Shown here in pieces: positions 50,382 to 60,757 of a stretch of DNA of 64,000 nt. Made by a program: the position numbers and the translations under genes. Position 1 is the first letter of the stretch, and each line of letters opens with the position of its first letter. Origin of the DNA: an uncultured Planctomycetaceae bacterium (GTDB lineage: Bacteria > Planctomycetota > Planctomycetia > Planctomycetales > Planctomycetaceae); assembly GCA_963813715.1 (NCBI GenBank), contig CAWFAK010000008.1, positions 544,001 through 608,000 of the forward strand, given 5' to 3'. Below the pieces are notes generated by a model. It ran no database searches. It saw only the letters and a program-made list of their open reading frames with translations, and was not told where the DNA came from.

Positions 50382-50539
50382 CACGCACCTCCCAAAGGGT
50401 CGGCCGGTGCGCTCTTTCGGACGGGGAAAGGTGAAGGGCCGAGCCAAGGGGGCGAAGAATATCGCGCGCCCCCGATCCGGGCAATGGCGGAATCCGGGCG
50501 AATTTCGCCGCTGGTTCGGCGGATGGAGAGGTCGCGCTT

Positions 50540-50662
50540 TGGGTGCCACGGTTGAGCTCGCTCAACCGTGCTCTTCGCGTCCAGCACCGTTATCAGCACC
50601 TAAAAAGAGCACGGCCGAGCCGAAGTGTCTCAGCCGTGGCACCCGAATTTCCGGACACCCTC
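50540..50662. repeat. REPIN (family B REP doublet) with one MITE-type end
   Basis: GGGTGCCACGGTTGAGC-TC-GCTCAACCGTG ... CACGGCCGAG..CTCAGCCGTGGCACCC, then GAATTTCCGGACACCCTC; homologous (inverted) to 54005-55303. Confidence 0.85.
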
Positions 50663-53086: not shown

Positions 53087-53299
53087 CGCCCGGAGATTGT
53101 ATCGACCCGCGGAAATCCTCAAATCCCAGTTGCCCAGGGCCTCAGTCCGCCTTTGCCTCAAAACCTCATTCGATTGCGCTCGGGCCTGTGAATTGTTGGA
53201 GAAACCCCCTACGGGCGGACACTGGAGCAGCAGCGCGAAGGGTGAGGGGCCGCGCGGCCATGCGGCATCCAGCGCAGTCCGTCGGGCTCGTTCGCGCGG

Positions 53300-53830
53300 T
53301 TAGGCGGGAACGTACGTCAACCGAATCAGGTCCTCGCCAATGAGATCGCTGCTCACAAGGCGGAGCGGCGGCCGGGGGCCGGTGAAGAATGGCTTGCCGC
53401 GACCAAGTACGATGGGGTGGAGGTAAAGTCGATACTCATCAATAAGACCAAGTTTGGTGAGGCTTCCTGCCAGGTCTGGTCCCGCAACGTCAATCTCCCC
53501 AACGTGCTGAGCCTTCAGCCCACGGATCACCGCCTCGATGTCATCCTCGACAAGCGTGGCGTTGGGCCCGACCGACTTCAACGAGCGCGACACGACCCAC
53601 TTCGGATGGCTCCGCCACGCCGCCGCGAACTCGCGTTCCTCCGCGACCCAATCCGGAAGGTCATCGTCCCAATAACGCATGACCTCGTACGTGCGGCGAC
53701 CGTACACCATGCCCGTCAGGTCGCGCACTTGCTCGATGAAGTGACGAAAGAGCGCCAGGTTTGGCCTAAATTCCAGATGGTCGACGTAGCCATCCAAGGA
53801 CTGGTTCAAGCCATAGACGAGCTTTGCCAT
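53300..53830 (-). CDS. Dihydrofolate reductase / RibD C-terminal family protein
   Basis: QSLDGYV, YGRRTYEVM, LIDEYRLYLHPIVLGRGKPFF. Confidence 0.9.
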   Translation of the reverse strand: MAKLVYGLNQSLDGYVDHLEFRPNLALFRHFIEQVRDLTGMVYGRRTYEVMRYWDDDLPDWVAEEREFAAAWRSHPKWVVSRSLKSVGPNATLVEDDIEAVIRGLKAQHVGEIDVAGPDLAGSLTKLGLIDEYRLYLHPIVLGRGKPFFTGPRPPLRLVSSDLIGEDLIRLTYVPA

Positions 53831-53961
53831 GCGACAAAATCTCCACCCCAGGTTCTTCAGAAAAGCTCGAGCCGACGTTCCGCAGGAGTCGGTTGGGCAC
53901 GATCTGCTCGCCGCATGTCAGTGTAACCAATAACCCGAGGTCCGCTTTGGCCGATTGTGCC

Positions 53962-53986
53962 GGGTGCCATGCCCACAGCTTTGGGT
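53962..53986. repeat. Family A REP, interrupted by a MITE end
   Basis: GGGTGCCATGCCCACAGCTTTGGGT then GAGACCGTCC. Confidence 0.75.
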
Positions 53987-54096
53987 GAGACCGTCCGGTA
54001 ATTCGGGTGCCACGGCTGAGACGCTTCGGCTCAGCCGTGCTCTTCCGGTTGCTGATGACGGTCGCGGCATCGTGAAGAGCACGGTTGAGCAAGCTC

Positions 54097-55279
54097 GAGG
54101 GGATCCGGGAATTAGGCGCTCTAAGAGAAAGGGTCTCCGTGGGTTAATGTTTTTTTGTCACAAAGAACATTGGCCCCACGGGAGACCCAAGGATGGGACA
54201 TTCTACCCGCGCCTCAGCAAGCCTGCATGCGTTGGTGAAGTTGATGATTCCTGTGTGCCAGCGTGCTGAGAGAGAGCACCCGCGTCGCGGTCCGGGACGA
54301 CCACCGGAGATTGCTGATTGGGTCATGCTCGTGCTCGTAACCGTCGCGATTCTCAAATACCGTCGGAACAAATCCGCCCAATACCGATTTCTCAGTCAAA
54401 ACCGAGCCAAGCTTTTGGAATGGATCGGGACCACCCGGTTCCCGTCACGCAGCACGTACTGTGAGCGTTATCGAAGGGCCCATCGCCTGTTTCAGGTTGC
54501 CGTTCGTCTTCAAGGCAGGTGTCTGTTGAAGCATCAAGTCGGCGACGCACGTTGTGTGGCTGTCGACAAAAGCCTGATTCGGTCGTTGGGTCCGAAGTGG
54601 CCAAAACGGCTGCGCATCCAAGGAAAGCTTTTGCGGGGTGTGGACCGTGAGAGCACGTGGGGCTATTGCAAGCACCATGGTTGGGTCCAGGGCTACTCCT
54701 ACGAAGTCCTACTTTCTGCGGGGAAAAAGGGACTTGTTGTGCCCCTCTTGGCGTCGGTGAATCAGGCTCACTGGAGTGAGCACCGGTCATTCCCCGAAAA
54801 GATTCCACACTTGCCTCGACCCACCAAGTACGTCTTGGCGGATAGCGGCTACGACGGCAATGACCACGCTGACGCCATCGAGCGAGATTCGCGTGGCAAC
54901 CCGACAGGCCGGCGGTTTTTATGCCCTCAAATCTACCGAGGAGGACATCGTCGCCAGCCGGGACCATTTCACGACGCACATCGTGCTCGAAGAGAAGTCC
55001 GCACTCGCCGGGAGGCGCGATATCAGTACTTCCAGACGAAGACAGCCCGGCTTCACTATTCGCGGCGAGGCAGAACCGCCGAGCCGTTCCACGAATGGTT
55101 CAAATCCACATTCCAACTTCACGAGCGAGCCTGGCACCGTGGCTTGGACAACAACCGCACCCAAGTTCTCGGCGCCCTGTTCGCCTACCAGCTACTCGTT
55201 CGCTACAACCGCCGAAAACACAAACACAACGGCTCAGTTCGCTGGATCCTCGACGGCCTCTGAATTCCCGGATCCCCTC
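54097..55279 (+). mobile_element. 1183-bp DDE insertion sequence (IS5/IS1182/IS4-like) inserted in a REP hairpin
   Basis: Perfect 17-bp IRs GAGGGGATCCGGGAATT / AATTCCCGGATCCCCTC; 10-bp direct repeat GAGCAAGCTC at 54087-54096 and 55280-55289. Confidence 0.92.
54193..55263 (+). CDS. DDE transposase (356 aa)
   Basis: VAVDKS, LADSGYD, Y..R..TAEPF..FK catalytic pattern; fills the IS. Confidence 0.9.
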   Translation: MGHSTRASASLHALVKLMIPVCQRAEREHPRRGPGRPPEIADWVMLVLVTVAILKYRRNKSAQYRFLSQNRAKLLEWIGTTRFPSRSTYCERYRRAHRLFQVAVRLQGRCLLKHQVGDARCVAVDKSLIRSLGPKWPKRLRIQGKLLRGVDRESTWGYCKHHGWVQGYSYEVLLSAGKKGLVVPLLASVNQAHWSEHRSFPEKIPHLPRPTKYVLADSGYDGNDHADAIERDSRGNPTGRRFLCPQIYRGGHRRQPGPFHDAHRARREVRTRREARYQYFQTKTARLHYSRRGRTAEPFHEWFKSTFQLHERAWHRGLDNNRTQVLGALFAYQLLVRYNRRKHKHNGSVRWILDGL

Positions 55280-55763
55280 GAGCAAGCTCAACCGTGGCAC
55301 CCAAGGCAAATCTTCCCTCTGAATTCCCGGACAGTCTCACGACACACGTATGCCACCTAGCGGAGCCCCACGCCCCATCGCGCGGTGGGACCACTTTCGG
55401 CGCCCCCCTTATATTAAATGTGAGGGTACCGTCACGGCGGGACCACTTTTTTGTTGTCCCGGCGGGTCCACTTGTCCCACCGGCGCATCGCCTCGGATGA
55501 GTCCGCCGGCTTGGCTGGAAGGCGATCGGCGACCTCCGCCTGGTCATGCCGCTCGATCCCGTCCCAGTCCCACTCAGGGTGGACGGGCCGGAAATAACGG
55601 CCCAAGTCTGCCGGGGATCCTTTTTCCCCCCTATGTGAAAACGGATCCCCACCACCAGCAGAAAGCCTCTTTTGTTCCGCCTGGTCCTTCCCGGCGGGCA
55701 AGTTTTGACCGCAACTCACTTCTCGCGGCGGTCGCGGGATCGTATGTGGCGATCGCCCGCCCC

Positions 55764-55869
55764 GCTGGTTCCGTAGGACAAGCTGCCAGCTTGTCCCCTT
55801 GTCCCATGTTTCAGCTTCGGAATCGGGGACTGGAGCGGGCAAGCTGGCAGCTCGCCCTACGGAACCAGC
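55764..55869. repeat. GTAG-type REPIN (family C)
   Basis: GCTGGTTCCGTAGGACAAGCTGCCAGCTTGTCC ... GGCAAGCTGGCAGCTCGCCCTACGGAACCAGC. Confidence 0.8.
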
Positions 55870-56620
55870 CGCCCGGGTTTGTCTCCGGTCCCGTCCCATT
55901 GAGAATGTGTCTGAGAATGTGTCCGGACCGGATTTTTCCCGCCCAACGGGAATTCGCGCTGCGCGTCCGGACCGACGACAGCCGAGTGGGCGATGTCGAG
56001 ATTTGCCGGGAAATGCTCGATAAAACAACGTGTCCCGTCCCGGTCCCGTGTCCGGTCCCAGCCCTGACCGGCAATCACGTTCGCTCGCGCACGCTCGGCG
56101 TCGCCGAAGCGCACTCGCGTTCAACGATCTCCGTGGTCCACGCGGGCATGGCTCCTGCTGTCGCGCGAAGGGCGCGCATCGCAACCGGCCGCGAAACACG
56201 TCGCTATTTTCATTCAGCCACAAAATGGTGGTTTGAACAAGATCGATTTTCTACGCCGCCGCTCTCGTGTCCGTTTGTCGCACGGACAGAACTACGGAGA
56301 CGAAATCGCAGAGCATTGTGGTTGGCGCAGGGCCTCAAGAAGCATCGATGCCGCCGTCCTCTTGACGCGGAACGGGAGCGACAAGAGCCAAGGCCTTCAA
56401 CAAAAAAATGCCAAGCTCCTCATGAAGGTCCCCGCTGCGAATGTTCTTGTCGCGCATACCGGGCGTGGCGCATGCTCACTTCTGCCGTTCGCCGAAAGCC
56501 GCCGCTCGAAATTGAAAAACGCGGATCAACGACTTCTTGCAATTACGCAACTTGTCAAATGGCGTGTTTTCCTGGCTCGCAGCGTTCCGTATCCCTTCGG
56601 GGTTCAAGGCGAATGCTCGG

Positions 56621-57588
56621 TCAGGAGCTCCGTTCGCGACGCGACATGGACACTCTATGACGCCACACGTCCCGAAGTGCCTGGGTCACGTTGTCATGCG
56701 TCGGCATCAGATGGGCCTTTGAAATCCCCTCAGCAAATAGCAGCCGCTTGAGCTCCCAAATTGCGTTAGCTGCCAACGTGTGCTTAACGAGCGACCCAGC
56801 CGGCAACAGCCTTTCGTACCGTGGCCACGCGCCATCCAAGAGATAGTTAGCATCGGCCCCTCCAATATATGTGAACAAGCCTTCTTGCGCATTCAGGAAG
56901 CCGATTTCGCTCCGGTCGACTGTCATTACCTTGACTCTCGTTTTCGAAAGGGCGAGATGTTGGAGGCTCAGTCCCCAAACGGCGATCGGGTCTTTCTGTC
57001 TTTGCGAAGCTGAATCGGCGGCGAAGAAGGCGGCTTTCTCGGCGCGATATGTCCAATCGAGAAAACGGGTCCGGATGCCGTGGTGTTGAGCGATCGCACC
57101 GGCCAGCCTCCATGGGTCGGACGCGTCGTCGGCCTCGGTAAGCAAAAATGGGAGATGGAAACCCGAATACCATTGGAAACCCCCTCCAGGGATTCGTAGT
57201 CCCAGCTCGTCGAGCATCCGAACAAATTCGAACACCGCCGCAAATTCAAATCGCTTTCGAACAATGAACGATCGGATCCTCTTCTTCCTCCAATGCGAAA
57301 TGTCGCGTCGAGCGTTTCGGCTTCTGCAGCCGCATCACTCAGATCGACCGCGGCATCATACAGCTGGAACAGTTGGTCTGATCGGACCTCCGGTCGCCAG
57401 AGGGATGGAACGAGCGCGTATCGCGATTTTGACTGTCCTCGAAAGATCCATTGGCAGTGCCACGATCCGTCCTTCAGCCAATGCCTCGAGGAGCGGCGAA
57501 GGTCGGCCAGAAATGGCGCGGCTTCGTCGTAAGAACGCTCGATGATTTGGCAAAGGTGGGGTTTCCGAGGTCCGCGTTTTTTTGCCAA
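56621..57588 (-). CDS. FRG domain protein (frameshift near 57250)
   Basis: WIFRGQ...LVPSLWR in ORF 56968..57588; AQHHGIRTRFLDWT...AAFFA and NAQEGLF in ORF 56621..57235. Confidence 0.85.
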
Positions 57589-57675
57589 TCCAGTGTCTCC
57601 GGTGCCGACACTTTAGTTTAACCGCCATGCGAGCGGAAACAGGGACACACTGTGTCGTGCCCAAAGCTCGGCGCC

Positions 57676-57709
57676 GGGCGCCATTCCCACGGCTCGGCGT
57701 GGGCATGTC
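57676..57709. repeat. Family A REP abutting the RAYT stop codon
   Basis: GGGCGCCATTCCCACGGCTCGGCGTGGGCATGTC. Confidence 0.75.
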
Positions 57710-57710
57710 T

Positions 57711-58284
57711 TCAACCTCGAGAGGTACGCGGAAGTGAGGATTGATCGACGCGGAGAAGCCCGCTGCCGGGACGCTCATATTCGACAGCACTTGACCACTG
57801 CCACGCGGTTGGAGTTGGACAGAGTCCCCGTCGCACTGCGTTTGCGTGGATATAGTCGATCTCGGCCCACACTGTCTGTGGTTCCATCAGGTTGCGGTCG
57901 TAGCCGCCGCCACGCTGCCAGAAGCGGTAGTGAAGTCGGCCACCCGGCTGCCGATCTTCCATCCGTGAAAGAAAGGCAGGAGCCGATCTTCGCACGTGTG
58001 ACAAGACTTTCAAGGAGACCGGCTGTTTTACTGAAGTCAAAAACTCGCTGATCGAATATCGCGGTTCCCGAGGCCACACGAGCAAATGCACATGCTTCGG
58101 CATGATCACGTAGGCCCAGAGATCAAATGTATGCTTTTCCTGCGCTTGATCGATCGCCTCAACGAGCCAGCGGCGGGTTCGCTCTTTCGACAGAAACGCA
58201 CGCCGACAGAAACAGGAAAACGTAAGTGAATGGGCTTGTCCCAGCTCGTTATACCGACGACACGTTCTTGCGGTGGCCGTTCAT
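57711..58284 (-). CDS. REP-associated tyrosine (Y1/HUH) transposase, RAYT (frameshift near 58266)
   Basis: Reconstructed AHSLTFSC...LWAYVIMPKHVHLL (HUH), FWQRGGGYDR, YIHAN (catalytic Tyr), WQWSS; flanked by inverted family A REPs. Confidence 0.88.
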
Positions 58285-58347
58285 GAGGAAGAACTGCTGC
58301 GACGATCAGAACAATCTCCCGTCGCGACATTCTGCCAAGCATTCTAG

Positions 58348-58543
58348 GACATGCCCACTCAAAGCCGTGAGACTGTCCGGGAATTCGAGGCTACAAACTC
58401 TAGGAAAATCGAGGTTCGACGGATTTGGACTTACGTCGAATCTGGACATCGATTCTGAGCAGTCGTAAATCTCCGACTTTCCACGGCAATTGCTCTGCAT
58501 GAATTACCGGACTGTCTCACTCAAAGCCGTGGGCATGGCACCC
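58348..58543. repeat. Family A REP split by a MITE
   Basis: Removing 58369-58530 restores GACATGCCCAC-TCAAAGCC-GTGGGCATGGCACCC. Confidence 0.8.
58369..58518. mobile_element. 150-bp MITE with 12-bp target duplication
   Basis: IRs GAGACTGTCCGGGAATTC / GAATTACCGGACTGTCTC; ACTCAAAGCCGT duplicated at 58357-58368 and 58519-58530. Confidence 0.85.
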
Positions 58544-58610
58544 TGCGTGGTTGTGCGAAGCGGAGCTTCGGGGACGTGCAGTCCCAAGCGGAGTGTCGAC
58601 CGAGCTCAAG

Positions 58611-59095
58611 CTAGCGGGCGATTTCCAGCCGGGCGATCTGACCACCAACGTCAAAGATTCGCACGAGGCTGCCCTCTCTGTCGGGCCGCCGTGAGATTGC
58701 GTGTTATTGAAGCCGGCGGTGACCATGAAGTCCGCGTATTCGTAATGGTGCCCGTTCACGGTGAACTGCTCCATCACATGTCCCTCCGGCGGCATTGGGA
58801 CGAAATCGACCACCTTTCCTTCGACGACTTCAAAGTGACCCAATCGAATTGCTTCGCGAAGCCTCCAATAGTCCGAAAAGGTGCCCAGAAAGGTTGCCAA
58901 TACCCAAAGGATCGAGAAAGCGGCTCCACAATAGGCAATAGCCCGCTGCATGGGATTGAGTCCATGGGTCTTCGCGGTCGTGGATTACAGCGCCACGAAA
59001 ATCGCGACTAGGATTAGGCCGAACGCAGGAAACCACCAGTTTCGGTATCCTGCCTGGCCGGCGTCAAAGACAAGTTCGTAGGTCGCTGGGGTCAT
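58611..59095 (-). CDS. Hypothetical membrane protein (2 frameshifts)
   Basis: MTPATYELVFD..WWFPAFGLI, VVEGKVVDFVPMPPEGH, GFNNTQSHGGP...IARLEIAR*. Confidence 0.55.
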
Positions 59096-59157
59096 GGCGA
59101 GCACGCATCACGGAGGTCTAGCCGGGACATTCTAGCCAAAAAGGCGGCTCCTTCTCT

Positions 59158-59229
59158 CGCTCCGAAGCGGTGCTTGGGACGGAGGTCAGCGCTCCGGGGC
59201 TTCCGCAAAGCGGAGCGCCCGGGCACCCC
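59158..59229. repeat. Second copy of REP-like family D
   Basis: CGGGGCTTCCGCAAAGCGGAGCGCCCGGGCACCC matches 40101-40134. Confidence 0.6.
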
Positions 59230-59271: not shown

Positions 59272-60757
59272 TCAGATCGCCGCGACGAGTTCTTCGCGCG
59301 GGGACTCTTGGCTGACGATTGTCGCCGGGCGGACGGGGATCGGTTCGGTTCGCACGGCGGGGCGGCGTTGGAGTAGCACGCAGGTCGCCAGGAACCAGAC
59401 TGTCGTGCCCAGCCCCAGCAGGCCGACTCGGCCGCTGTTGGGCAACAGGCAATAGTGCAGCCACACCAGGACGACGGGAATCCAGGCCACGAACTCGGAG
59501 GCTCGCAGTCGACTCAGTTCGACCAGTCGCTGGCAGACGAACGGAATCGCCGGCAGGAACAGCACGTAATAGCAGCCGCGGGCGACCGGGCAGACCACGA
59601 GCGTGGCGACGCAGGCCAGGCCGAAGACTGTTCCGCGTCCGACCGGGTCGTTCGCAAATCCGGCTCGCAGCACGAACCACAGCAGGATCGCCAGGGCCAG
59701 AATTCTTCCGGCGACGATCAACATGCCGGAGTCGCCAATCGTCCATTGGCAATCGCAACGACGCATCGTGCGGGTGATCGATCAGCGTGTCGTCCGGTCC
59801 GTAGTCGAGCTTGCGCGGTGAGGAAGTTGCCGAAGCGGTAGGCGGCATTGTCGAGACTTTGATTGCGAATGGAGCGGACGTCCTCGCCGAAGTCGGACGT
59901 GCGGACGTCGACCACTTTGGTCACGACTTTGGAGAACCAGGTGTGCAGATGGTGGAGATTGCCGTTCCAGCCGGTGAGCGCCGCGGGGATCAGGAAGGCG
60001 AAGAGCAAGAGGCCCACGGTGAGTCCGCCGCCCAGCACCGCGGGCCGCTGCCAGGCCTGTCTGAGAGGTTGTCCCTGTTTCCAGGCGACCCAAGCGAGCC
60101 GCGCTTCGTACAGCAACAAGCAGCCGACCGGCAGCAGCGGGGTGAGCTTGAGAATCCCGGCCAGCGCGAAGACCAGGCCCGCGAGCGCCCAATGGCGGGC
60201 TCGTGTTCCCGTGAGCGCGATGCGGAAGCCGAGCATCAAGCAGGTAGAGTTTGAAAACCTCGACCTGGCCGCGCTGCAGGCAATTGAAGGCGGGCAAGAT
60301 CGCGGCAGCGATGGCGGCCGTGCACAGGCACATGTTGAGCTGGGCGGGATCCTTCGCCGTGCTGGGCCGTGTGAGTCAGCACAAAGGCGAGGATTCGCCT
60401 CAGCTCGAAGTAGCAGCCAAACACCATGCCGACGCTGAGCACGAACCAGACGCCGACCTGCCCCATCGGCGGCAGGACGTGCAGCGGCGCGACCAGGATG
60501 GCGAACATCGGCGGATAGAGATACCGCCAGCCGCGCGGATTGCTCACCTGGTAGGGGTCGCGTCCGTCGAAGAACGCGGCCCCCGCTTCGGTGTAGACGG
60601 TGAAGTCGGTCCGGTGCTCGTTGATTCGCTGGTGATTCACCATGCCCCGCGGCACGACGTCCAGCCAGCCCCAAATCGCAAAGGCAATCAACAGGCCCAG
60701 GTAAATCCAACGATAGCGGAAGACTTCCTCCGCAGGACGAAATCGCGGCATCGTCAC
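59272..60757 (-). CDS. Glycosyltransferase family 87 (DUF2029), about 3 frameshifts
   Basis: TDFTVY, YLYPPMFA, LQRGQ, LKLTP, NQSL motifs across overlapping ORFs. Confidence 0.78.

Follow-up and report, generated by a model that had tools for sequence, protein, structure and literature searches.

Probable nested insertion into hairpins around a REP-associated tyrosine transposase gene in an uncultured planctomycete

Within a 64,000-nt window of an uncultured Planctomycetaceae genome (G000:C8:544001-608000), an island at 53962-58543 surrounds a gene for a tyrosine transposase associated with repetitive extragenic palindromes (REPs), hereafter the RAYT. The window is the whole stretch of DNA analysed; G000 is its source genome (7.49 Mb, 63% G+C, 18 contigs), G002-G011 are other genomes of the genus, and C gives a contig number in G000 unless another genome is named. 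The RAYT lies between hairpins of a REP family that we call REP-A, and the island further holds two miniature inverted-repeat transposable elements (MITE1 and MITE2), an insertion sequence (IS) with a DDE-type transposase (IS-A), an FRG-domain gene and a mosaic of short repeats (Table 1). As judged from sequence comparison, the region is very likely not one element but was built up by separate insertions into hairpins.

Table 1 Features of the island and their positions in the window. IR, inverted repeat; ORF, open reading frame; TSD, target-site duplication.
Feature	Position	Strand	Remarks
Left REP-A-like half and loop (gggtgcCATGCCCAC AGCTTTGG)	53962..53984	+	with the MITE1 end, forms the left IR arm
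MITE1	53987..55338		~163 bp without passenger; ends GAGACCGTCCGGTAATTC / GAATTCCCGGACAGTCTC; REP-B doublet inside; interrupted by IS-A
IS-A	54097..55279	+	ends GAGGGGATCC.../...GGATCCCCTC; DDE_Tnp_1 ORF of 356 aa, 54193-55263
~1-kb mosaic of short repeat families	55342..56319		no gene assigned; at 55756-55877, a hairpin whose arms are 44 nt long
FRG-domain gene, split over two frames	56621..57588	-	Pfam FRG, E 2.7e-9 on 56621-57235
Intact REP-A hairpin 3' of the RAYT (gggcgcCATTCCCAC GGCTCGGC GTGGGCATG)	57676..57707		hairpin proper 57682-57707
RAYT	57711..58284	-	NCBIfam and Pfam profiles
REP-A hairpin 5' of the RAYT, first arm with loop	58348..58368		ends in the left MITE2 TSD copy (ACTCAAAGCCGT, 58357-58368)
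MITE2	58369..58518		150 bp between TSD copies
Right MITE2 TSD copy (58519-58530) and second REP-A arm GTGGGCATGgcaccc	58519..58543		with the MITE2 end (58501-58518), forms the right IR arm

The island is bounded by inverted repeats: 53962-54004 and the reverse-complemented 58501-58543 are identical at 40 of 43 positions, and a repeat search extends the match gap-free to 67 nt at 81% identity (53938-54004 and 58501-58567). Each 43-bp arm reads gggtgcCATGCCCAC, then 8 nt, then GTGAGAC.GTCCGGTAATTC; a REP-A hairpin contributes its outer half and loop, and a 20-nt MITE end comes next. An earlier sequence-only reading had proposed 43-bp arms of this make-up, half a REP fused to a MITE end, and both points hold. 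Its inventory of a DDE IS, a RAYT with its own REPs, an FRG gene and two MITEs also proved correct as to what is present, but the RAYT and FRG genes are out of frame and the two MITEs are alike only in their ~20-nt ends. The 26-mers identical to the left REP half occur in intact REP-A doublets at C5:1407257 and C7:297455. Because the junction of REP half and MITE end recurs elsewhere, we ascribe the 40/43 match to repeat-family identity rather than to chance; two MITEs with near-identical ends stand at the same position in opposite-facing REP-A hairpins, so that their outer junctions read as a 43-bp inverted repeat.

Both elements have the hallmarks of MITEs: they are small, contain no ORF and carry terminal inverted repeats of ~18-20 nt. 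Four occurrences of the 20-nt end, GTGAGACTGTCCGGGAATTC, lie in the region, at 53985-54004, 55321-55340 (reverse), 58367-58386 and 58501-58520 (reverse). MITE2, a second copy of which lies at C14:86906-87061 (92% identity), is flanked by a perfect 12-bp target-site duplication that falls within the REP 5' of the RAYT. Excising MITE2 together with one copy of the duplication restores the hairpin at that site, gaCATGCCCAC-TCAAAGCC-GTGGGCATGgcaccc.

Besides the copy of MITE1 here, nhmmer located no fewer than 15 others, whole or partial. Its interior, gggtgc-CACGGCTGAG-N9-CTCAGCCGTG ... CACGGTTGAG-N-TCAACCGTG-gcaccc, is a doublet of another REP family, REP-B. At C3:72441-72866, a RAYT is bordered on each side by this doublet, in a form lacking DDE-type ends. 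The first REP-B hairpin gave 27 matches, ~22 of which belong to the family by reading of the rows, and ~19 of these ~22 adjoin a DDE-type end. Over 18 positions, the MITE end is identical to the IS-A end at 14 and to that of a related element, IS-B, at 16; at the right end of MITE1, a further ~9 nt beyond the 20-nt end resemble the ends of both. A partial MITE1 (profile positions 2-131) with no adjoining REP-A arm also lies on the minus strand at 50534-50661, 3.3 kb upstream of the island.

REP-A itself was searched across the whole of G000 as CATGCCCAC-N(4-12)-GTGGGCATG, each arm being permitted a single mismatch. The family is of low copy number: there are 28 matches, 23 of them with an 8-nt loop, and most copies form doublets (gggtgc-HP1-spacer-HP2-gcaccc, where HP1 and HP2 are the two hairpins), the short, GC-rich palindromes, repeated in inverted pairs, by which REPs and REP doublets forming hairpins (REPINs) are recognized.

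MITE ends often lie at a fixed distance from these hairpins. Searching for the 18-mer MITE end with up to four mismatches returned 143 matches, mostly due to chance, which we classed by their interior sequence. Twenty-two genuine MITE1 or MITE2 ends were kept; four IS-B ends first classed as right MITE1 ends (MITE1_R) and one four-mismatch match were left out, and the C14 MITE2 end was reassigned to its own class in the count. A REP-A arm, CATGCCCAC with at most two mismatches, lies exactly 10 nt outside 13 of the 22, compared with 690 of 400,000 random genome positions. At C18:64418 the arm is offset by one base, and this end is not among the 13.

Flanks of the complete copies point to the same position. 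Among nine complete MITE1 and MITE2 copies, five have 12-nt flanks that agree at 12, 12, 11, 11 and 10 positions, and a sixth, with a 1-nt indel in its end, at 8; non-cognate pairings of the flanks reach 10 or more of 12 in only 4 of 182 cases. The duplications and the offset together therefore place the insertion point at AC-N8-GT, which takes in the loop and the two stem bases to either side of it. In one case, at C5:351163-351320, a MITE1 has taken the place of a REP-A doublet's inner stem-loop, and no duplication is seen. These data, together with the nesting of an IS in a MITE and of MITEs in REPs, uphold the proposal that DDE elements use REP hairpins as landing sites.

The junction created in this way is not peculiar to the island. 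The REP-A outer half has 40 matches in G000, and in 8 of them a MITE-type end comes next, belonging to MITEs or related elements; besides the two arms here, the loci are C5:351138, C5:351345, C12:50809, C14:87084, C17:505105 and C18:64444. Of 12 genomes of the genus, 6 contain the pattern CATGCCCAC-N(8,9)-GTGAGNNNGTCCGG, with 6-9 exact matches apiece; a reversed control pattern has none. Five MITE-sized junction pairs in the relatives carry a duplicated loop as read from the match strings, at 8/8 positions in four and 7/8 in one.

IS-A adds a further level. The ORF within it has a DDE_Tnp_1 domain (E 6.2e-10), and a 10-bp target-site duplication (GAGCAAGCTC, 10/10; 54087-54096 and 55280-55289) brackets the element, two of its four copies having been examined for this. 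Uninterrupted MITE1 copies read CACGGTTGAGC-AAGC-TCAACCGTG at this site, which puts IS-A in the loop of the second MITE1 hairpin. All four G000 copies of IS-A sit inside a MITE1 at the same position. They are 98.7-100% identical to one another, the MITE parts beside them are only about 81-89% identical, and the outer flanks differ; the copies are therefore independent insertions into old MITE1 copies. IS-B, 68-74% identical to IS-A and present in 6-7 copies in G000 (for example, C5:251382-252565, C14:31905-33090 and C7:1108417-1109602), sits in a palindrome, TTCCCAAGC-GGA-GCTTGGGAA, and two of three copies examined have an 11/11 duplication, AAGCGGAGCTT, as read from their flanks. IS-A thus shares with IS-B, and with the IS1182 family, the habit of entering palindromes or stem-loops. 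Homologues of the IS-A transposase number 1237 proteins at E <= 1e-5, none bearing an IS family name and a few with Pfam PF13751, so that IS-A was assigned to no family.

Public metagenomes also contain IS-A. Between 23% and 31% of the words sampled occur in twenty runs from 14 studies, four of which were compared as contigs. IS-A occurs at 99.7-100% identity on soil-metagenome contigs of three studies (runs X1, X2 and X3). The public contigs cover IS-A, in one case as a 1222-nt contig with no differences, and the short repeats; none of the listed contigs spans the island. A contig of X3 connects 53984 with 55339 across an interval of 26 other letters. Apparent joints in the public contigs (53987 to 58518 and similar) were considered as excision products and rejected: their sides are 21-30 nt long with other letters between them, and they are ordinary REP-A doublets from other loci or other organisms.

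Taken together, these observations indicate how the island was very likely built. A compact REP-RAYT-REP unit (57676-58543) supplies REP-A hairpins of the form CATGCCCAC-N8-GTGGGCATG. MITEs with ~20-nt ends like those of the DDE_Tnp_1 ISs insert at AC-N8-GT and duplicate 12 bp, presumably moved by a DDE transposase of the IS-A/IS-B group. MITE2 entered the REP 5' of the RAYT, and MITE1 adjoins the REP-A-like half at 53962. IS-A, finally, inserts into the loop of the second MITE1 hairpin with a 10-bp duplication.

The RAYT at the centre of the unit matches NCBIfam NF047646 REP_Tyr_transpos at 86.8 bits (cut-off 80) and Pfam Y1_Tnp at 31.5 bits (cut-off 23). Its translation shows HVHLL and IDYIHANAV as the HUH motif and the site of the catalytic tyrosine, with N-A-V replacing N-P-V. 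The gene stands between REP-A hairpins in inverted orientation, one intact and one split by MITE2, and REP-A occurs elsewhere in G000 as well. Its frame is not intact. Compared with the intact orthologue in G011, one extra base follows codon 7 (near codon 8, ~58262; MNGHRKN...), so that the ATG is out of frame with the rest; the next in-frame ATG, GTG or TTG is just two codons ahead of the HUH motif, and a protein begun there would miss the N-terminal third.

The nearest orthologues, in G011, G003, G004 and G007, are 74-82% identical and form compact units of the type gggtgc-HP1, ~560-bp gene, HP2-gcaccc. REP-A hairpins or halves lie on both sides of the gene in G011, G003 and G007; in G004 the upstream site is a half-site in the other orientation. 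Three other RAYTs in G000 are 40-44% identical to that of the window, and no REP-A was found around them. The clade is patchy in the genus: the best match in G002 is only 47% identical, and G003 and G011 hold multiple copies. G011 has at least seven RAYT matches and dozens of internally deleted REP-RAYT-REP copies of ~210-230 bp, for example C2:1643173-1643321 plus 1643340-1643402 of that genome, which correspond to 57671-57819 plus 58307-58369 of the window. In G011 the clade looks IS-like, with deletion copies that resemble precursors of REPINs.

Comparison with G002, the closest genome searched (RibD_C protein 98% identical, flanking DNA 91-95%), separates the parts of the island. There, 53272-53984 runs directly into 55339-56319 (...CCCACAGCTTTGG/ACGACACAGGCATGCCACC...), with neither MITE1 nor IS-A. 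The segment 56320-59171, which holds the FRG gene, the RAYT unit, MITE2 and an ORF at 58517-58951, is replaced by an unrelated 4.7 kb (locus L015, G002:C17, 8302-13011), another cargo of this hot spot. This replacement encodes an IS4/IS5-type transposase (DUF4096 plus DDE_Tnp_1), a 467-aa CarboxypepD_reg protein and ORFs of 261 and 174 aa without a Pfam match; apart from a short repeat, it was not found in G000. Collinearity returns at 59172, and the variable segment (56320-59171) therefore differs from the segment bounded by the inverted repeats (53962-58543). In five relatives, the only DNA matches to 56320-59171 fall within 57665-58593, which comprises the RAYT unit, REPs and MITE ends. G007 diverges right after the RibD_C promoter region; no REP was found at that locus, and it provides no extra empty site.

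We weighed three other explanations against stepwise insertion. The sequence-only reading had suggested that the 43-bp ends could move the RAYT and FRG genes together, so that IS, FRG and RAYT would travel as the block of a composite transposon. Two related elements with near-identical outer ends do bracket the genes in inverted orientation, as in composite transposons, and 56320-59171 is strain-specific relative to G002. That segment does not coincide with the IR-bounded one, however. G002 keeps the left REP half and 55339-56319 although it has no MITE1, and its lack of MITE1 with IS-A is independent of its lack of the RAYT/FRG part. MITE2 has its own 12/12 duplication, whereas the outer flanks of the supposed block, ACAGCTTTGGGT and ACTCAAAGCCGT, share 4 of 12 bases and no common duplication. 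No second copy of the block was found at other loci in G000, where 56320-57660 is single-copy; the FRG gene was found by DNA in none of five relatives and by protein only in G008 (41%). The sequence-only reading had taken two outcomes as telling against a mobile block. One of them, the junction of REP half and MITE end as a stand-alone repeat across the genome, is what we see, with 8 of 40 halves in G000, 6-9 copies in 6 of 12 genomes, and occurrences at single MITEs. The other, conserved synteny of RAYT and FRG in relatives, is not: the RAYT orthologues stand elsewhere as compact units, and the ~3.5-kb loci examined in G011, G003, G004 and G007 yielded no match to FRG. We consider movement as a block extremely unlikely.

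A second explanation makes the REP half part of the MITE, whose true end would then be the whole ~43 bp, with no targeting of REP hairpins. The high recurrence of the junction fits this, as does the copy at C5:351163-351320, which stands between two REP-A outer halves whose loops differ and which show no duplication. Loops nevertheless vary from copy to copy and yet are duplicated on both sides of one copy, and copies with duplications of 10-12/12 occur in non-canonical REP-A sites (C5:1413583-1413742, with a one-mismatch arm on one side, and C16:112256-112435). Intact REP-A hairpins and doublets without MITEs also exist and flank the RAYT orthologues in relatives. We regard this account as highly improbable; a sister strain offers an empty-site comparison at one MITE-bearing locus, that of the atypical window MITE1 (G002). 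It is likewise highly improbable that a RAYT or another HUH enzyme moves MITE1 through its internal REP-B doublet, with insertion free of duplication as the normal mode. The window MITE1 shows no duplication against the G002 empty site, and its interior is of the REP-B doublet type that flanks the RAYT at C3:72441-72866. Single-strand HUH transposition (IS200/IS605) is not known to make target-site duplications, but other MITE1 copies have duplications of 10-12/12; the 20-nt ends and the further ~9 nt at the right end resemble those of IS-A and IS-B, and MITE2 has the same ends and a perfect duplication with no REP-B inside.

Several observations also weigh against stepwise insertion into hairpins, the reading that we prefer. 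One concerns the window MITE1: its flanks agree at 4 of 12 positions, the empty site in G002 shows neither a duplicated target nor a footprint, and a simple DDE insertion therefore does not account for its history. Nor is the REP-A-like site at 53962 canonical in G002, where the second arm, GGCATGCCACC, follows a 19-nt loop. The preference for REP-A is not absolute, as 9 of the 22 MITE ends have no adjoining REP-A arm, and three of the nine complete copies have flanks agreeing at 4-5 of 12 and no duplication. An autonomous IS whose ends match those of the MITEs exactly was not found. The one named IS profile to which IS-A shows any match is that of IS1182, NF033551, and this match is weak and C-terminal (24.9 bits against a cut-off of 270, residues 272-334), and its 356 aa are far fewer than the 488 profile positions, so membership of that family is not borne out. 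Past the 43-bp arms, 14 of the outer 24 nt are identical, and only the two arms here, among 40 REP-A outer halves, have matching 24-nt neighbours; we can attribute the outer match solely to a REP-C-like motif on both sides. Lastly, every inference drawn here comes from static sequence, with no transposition observed.

For the mismatched flanks of the window MITE1, three histories would serve: recombination between MITE1 copies with excision in G002, a non-duplicating insertion, or stem-loop replacement. On the right, its flank shares homology with that of the C16 MITE1, itself beside another copy of the ~1-kb repeat. That mosaic comprises at least four short repeat families of 10-35 copies each and is found whole in G002 (L015:7321-8301) and at C16:112237-111104, beside another MITE1. 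We also considered a regular REP-A/REP-C mosaic as the source of the 67-nt extension; the idea is weak, since, of 40 REP-A outer halves, just the two here have such a neighbour. A REP-C-like motif similar to the IS-B palindrome lies at 58555-58600.

Another repeat, fam3, was tried as an autonomous IS with exact MITE ends and set aside, being only a shared stretch of ~100 nt with no second end and no transposase. At C12:213806-213885, C14:33221-33319, C14:36505-36603 and other loci, fam3 carries the exact 20-nt MITE end, always beside a CATGCTCAC-N9 REP variant.

Two genes of the island and one next to it bear on the integrity of the assembly. The Pfam FRG match covers only the C-terminal part of its gene (ORF 56621-57235), and the N-terminal part lies in another frame; in G008, the only one of 30 relatives with a homologue by protein, both parts share one frame. 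A membrane-protein gene at 59272-60757 (minus strand), a single 493-aa ORF in G002, has four 1-nt insertions in G000 (59732, 59816, 60238 and 60361), which makes it either a pseudogene or a sign of assembly indel errors. G000 is 82.6% complete despite its 18 contigs. Given these insertions and this completeness, assembly indel errors could explain the RAYT and FRG frameshifts as well.

Nested hairpin targeting at this locus is real and well supported, and it is behaviour of an already known kind. RAYT/REPIN systems have reportedly been treated by Nunvar in 2010 and by Bertels and Rainey in 2011. As in those systems, a Y1/HUH transposase gene here lies between inverted REPs, whose sequence recurs in doublets dispersed over the genome; unlike them, REP-A is of low copy number (28), the RAYT reads as frameshifted, and a sizeable share of REP sites (8/40) carries MITEs or related elements. 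RAYTs are described in extracts of Bertels 2017 (PMC5581495) as typically single-copy and mostly vertically inherited, whereas the present clade is patchy in the genus and multicopy in G011 and G003.

ISs that target REPs have also been described. Extracts of Tobes and Pareja 2006 (PMC1525189) list five families, IS3, IS110, IS4, IS256 and IS5, that insert at fixed REP positions, with IS1397/ISKpn1, ISPsy8, ISPpu9/ISPpu10, ISPa11, IS621 and ISRm22 as named cases. The elements here resemble them in using one fixed position of the REP palindrome. All or most copies of those ISs lie in REPs, according to the same extracts, and some, as here, have direct repeats that do not match, which is put down there to recombination of one copy with another; hybrid copies of this sort are reported for ISRm22. 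Our case differs in that the main occupants are MITEs of 150-165 bp, not full ISs, the 12-bp duplication covers the whole 8-nt loop, the transposase (a 356-aa DDE_Tnp_1 protein) falls outside the named set, and a second tier exists in which IS-A targets a hairpin inside a MITE.

A further case is IS1272, which, like members of its family, IS1182, more generally, targets stem-loops; the available extracts of Wan et al. 2017 (PMC5678879) model loop duplication, duplication of the entire stem-loop and stem-loop replacement as outcomes. Here too, DDE elements target hairpin or palindromic DNA, and the C5:351163-351320 copy resembles the replacement outcome. Most copies here duplicate the loop, in contrast to newly inserted IS1272, which those extracts report as replacement without a target-site duplication. 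Composite transposons differ from the island in the points set out above, namely a shared duplication, a second copy and parts that come and go together.

One more step is possible but rather doubtful: MITE1 may be a REPIN, the REP-B doublet, captured between DDE-type ends, in a self-propagating three-tier chain where each tier carries or creates the next hairpin target. No description of a REPIN between DDE-type MITE ends turned up in our literature searches, which were not aimed at one, and we do not claim that none is in print. If MITE1 is such an element, REP-B would not need its RAYT to spread in G000 but would be carried there mainly by a DDE MITE that seeks hairpins; this MITE would home to the loops of a second REP family, and the cargo hairpin would be the only landing pad of IS-A. 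REPINs carried as cargo would then provide a RAYT-independent route for REP spread.

The nested insertions remove a tempting but wrong reading of the locus: the long inverted repeat around this RAYT is the footprint of site-specific insertion, not a RAYT vehicle. A REP family whose RAYT looks broken is here heavily colonized by hairpin-seeking elements. In a soil-associated genus, whose IS and related repeats recur in soil-metagenome contigs, a large uncharacterized group of 356-aa DDE_Tnp_1 transposases and their MITEs seek out hairpin loops and duplicate them.

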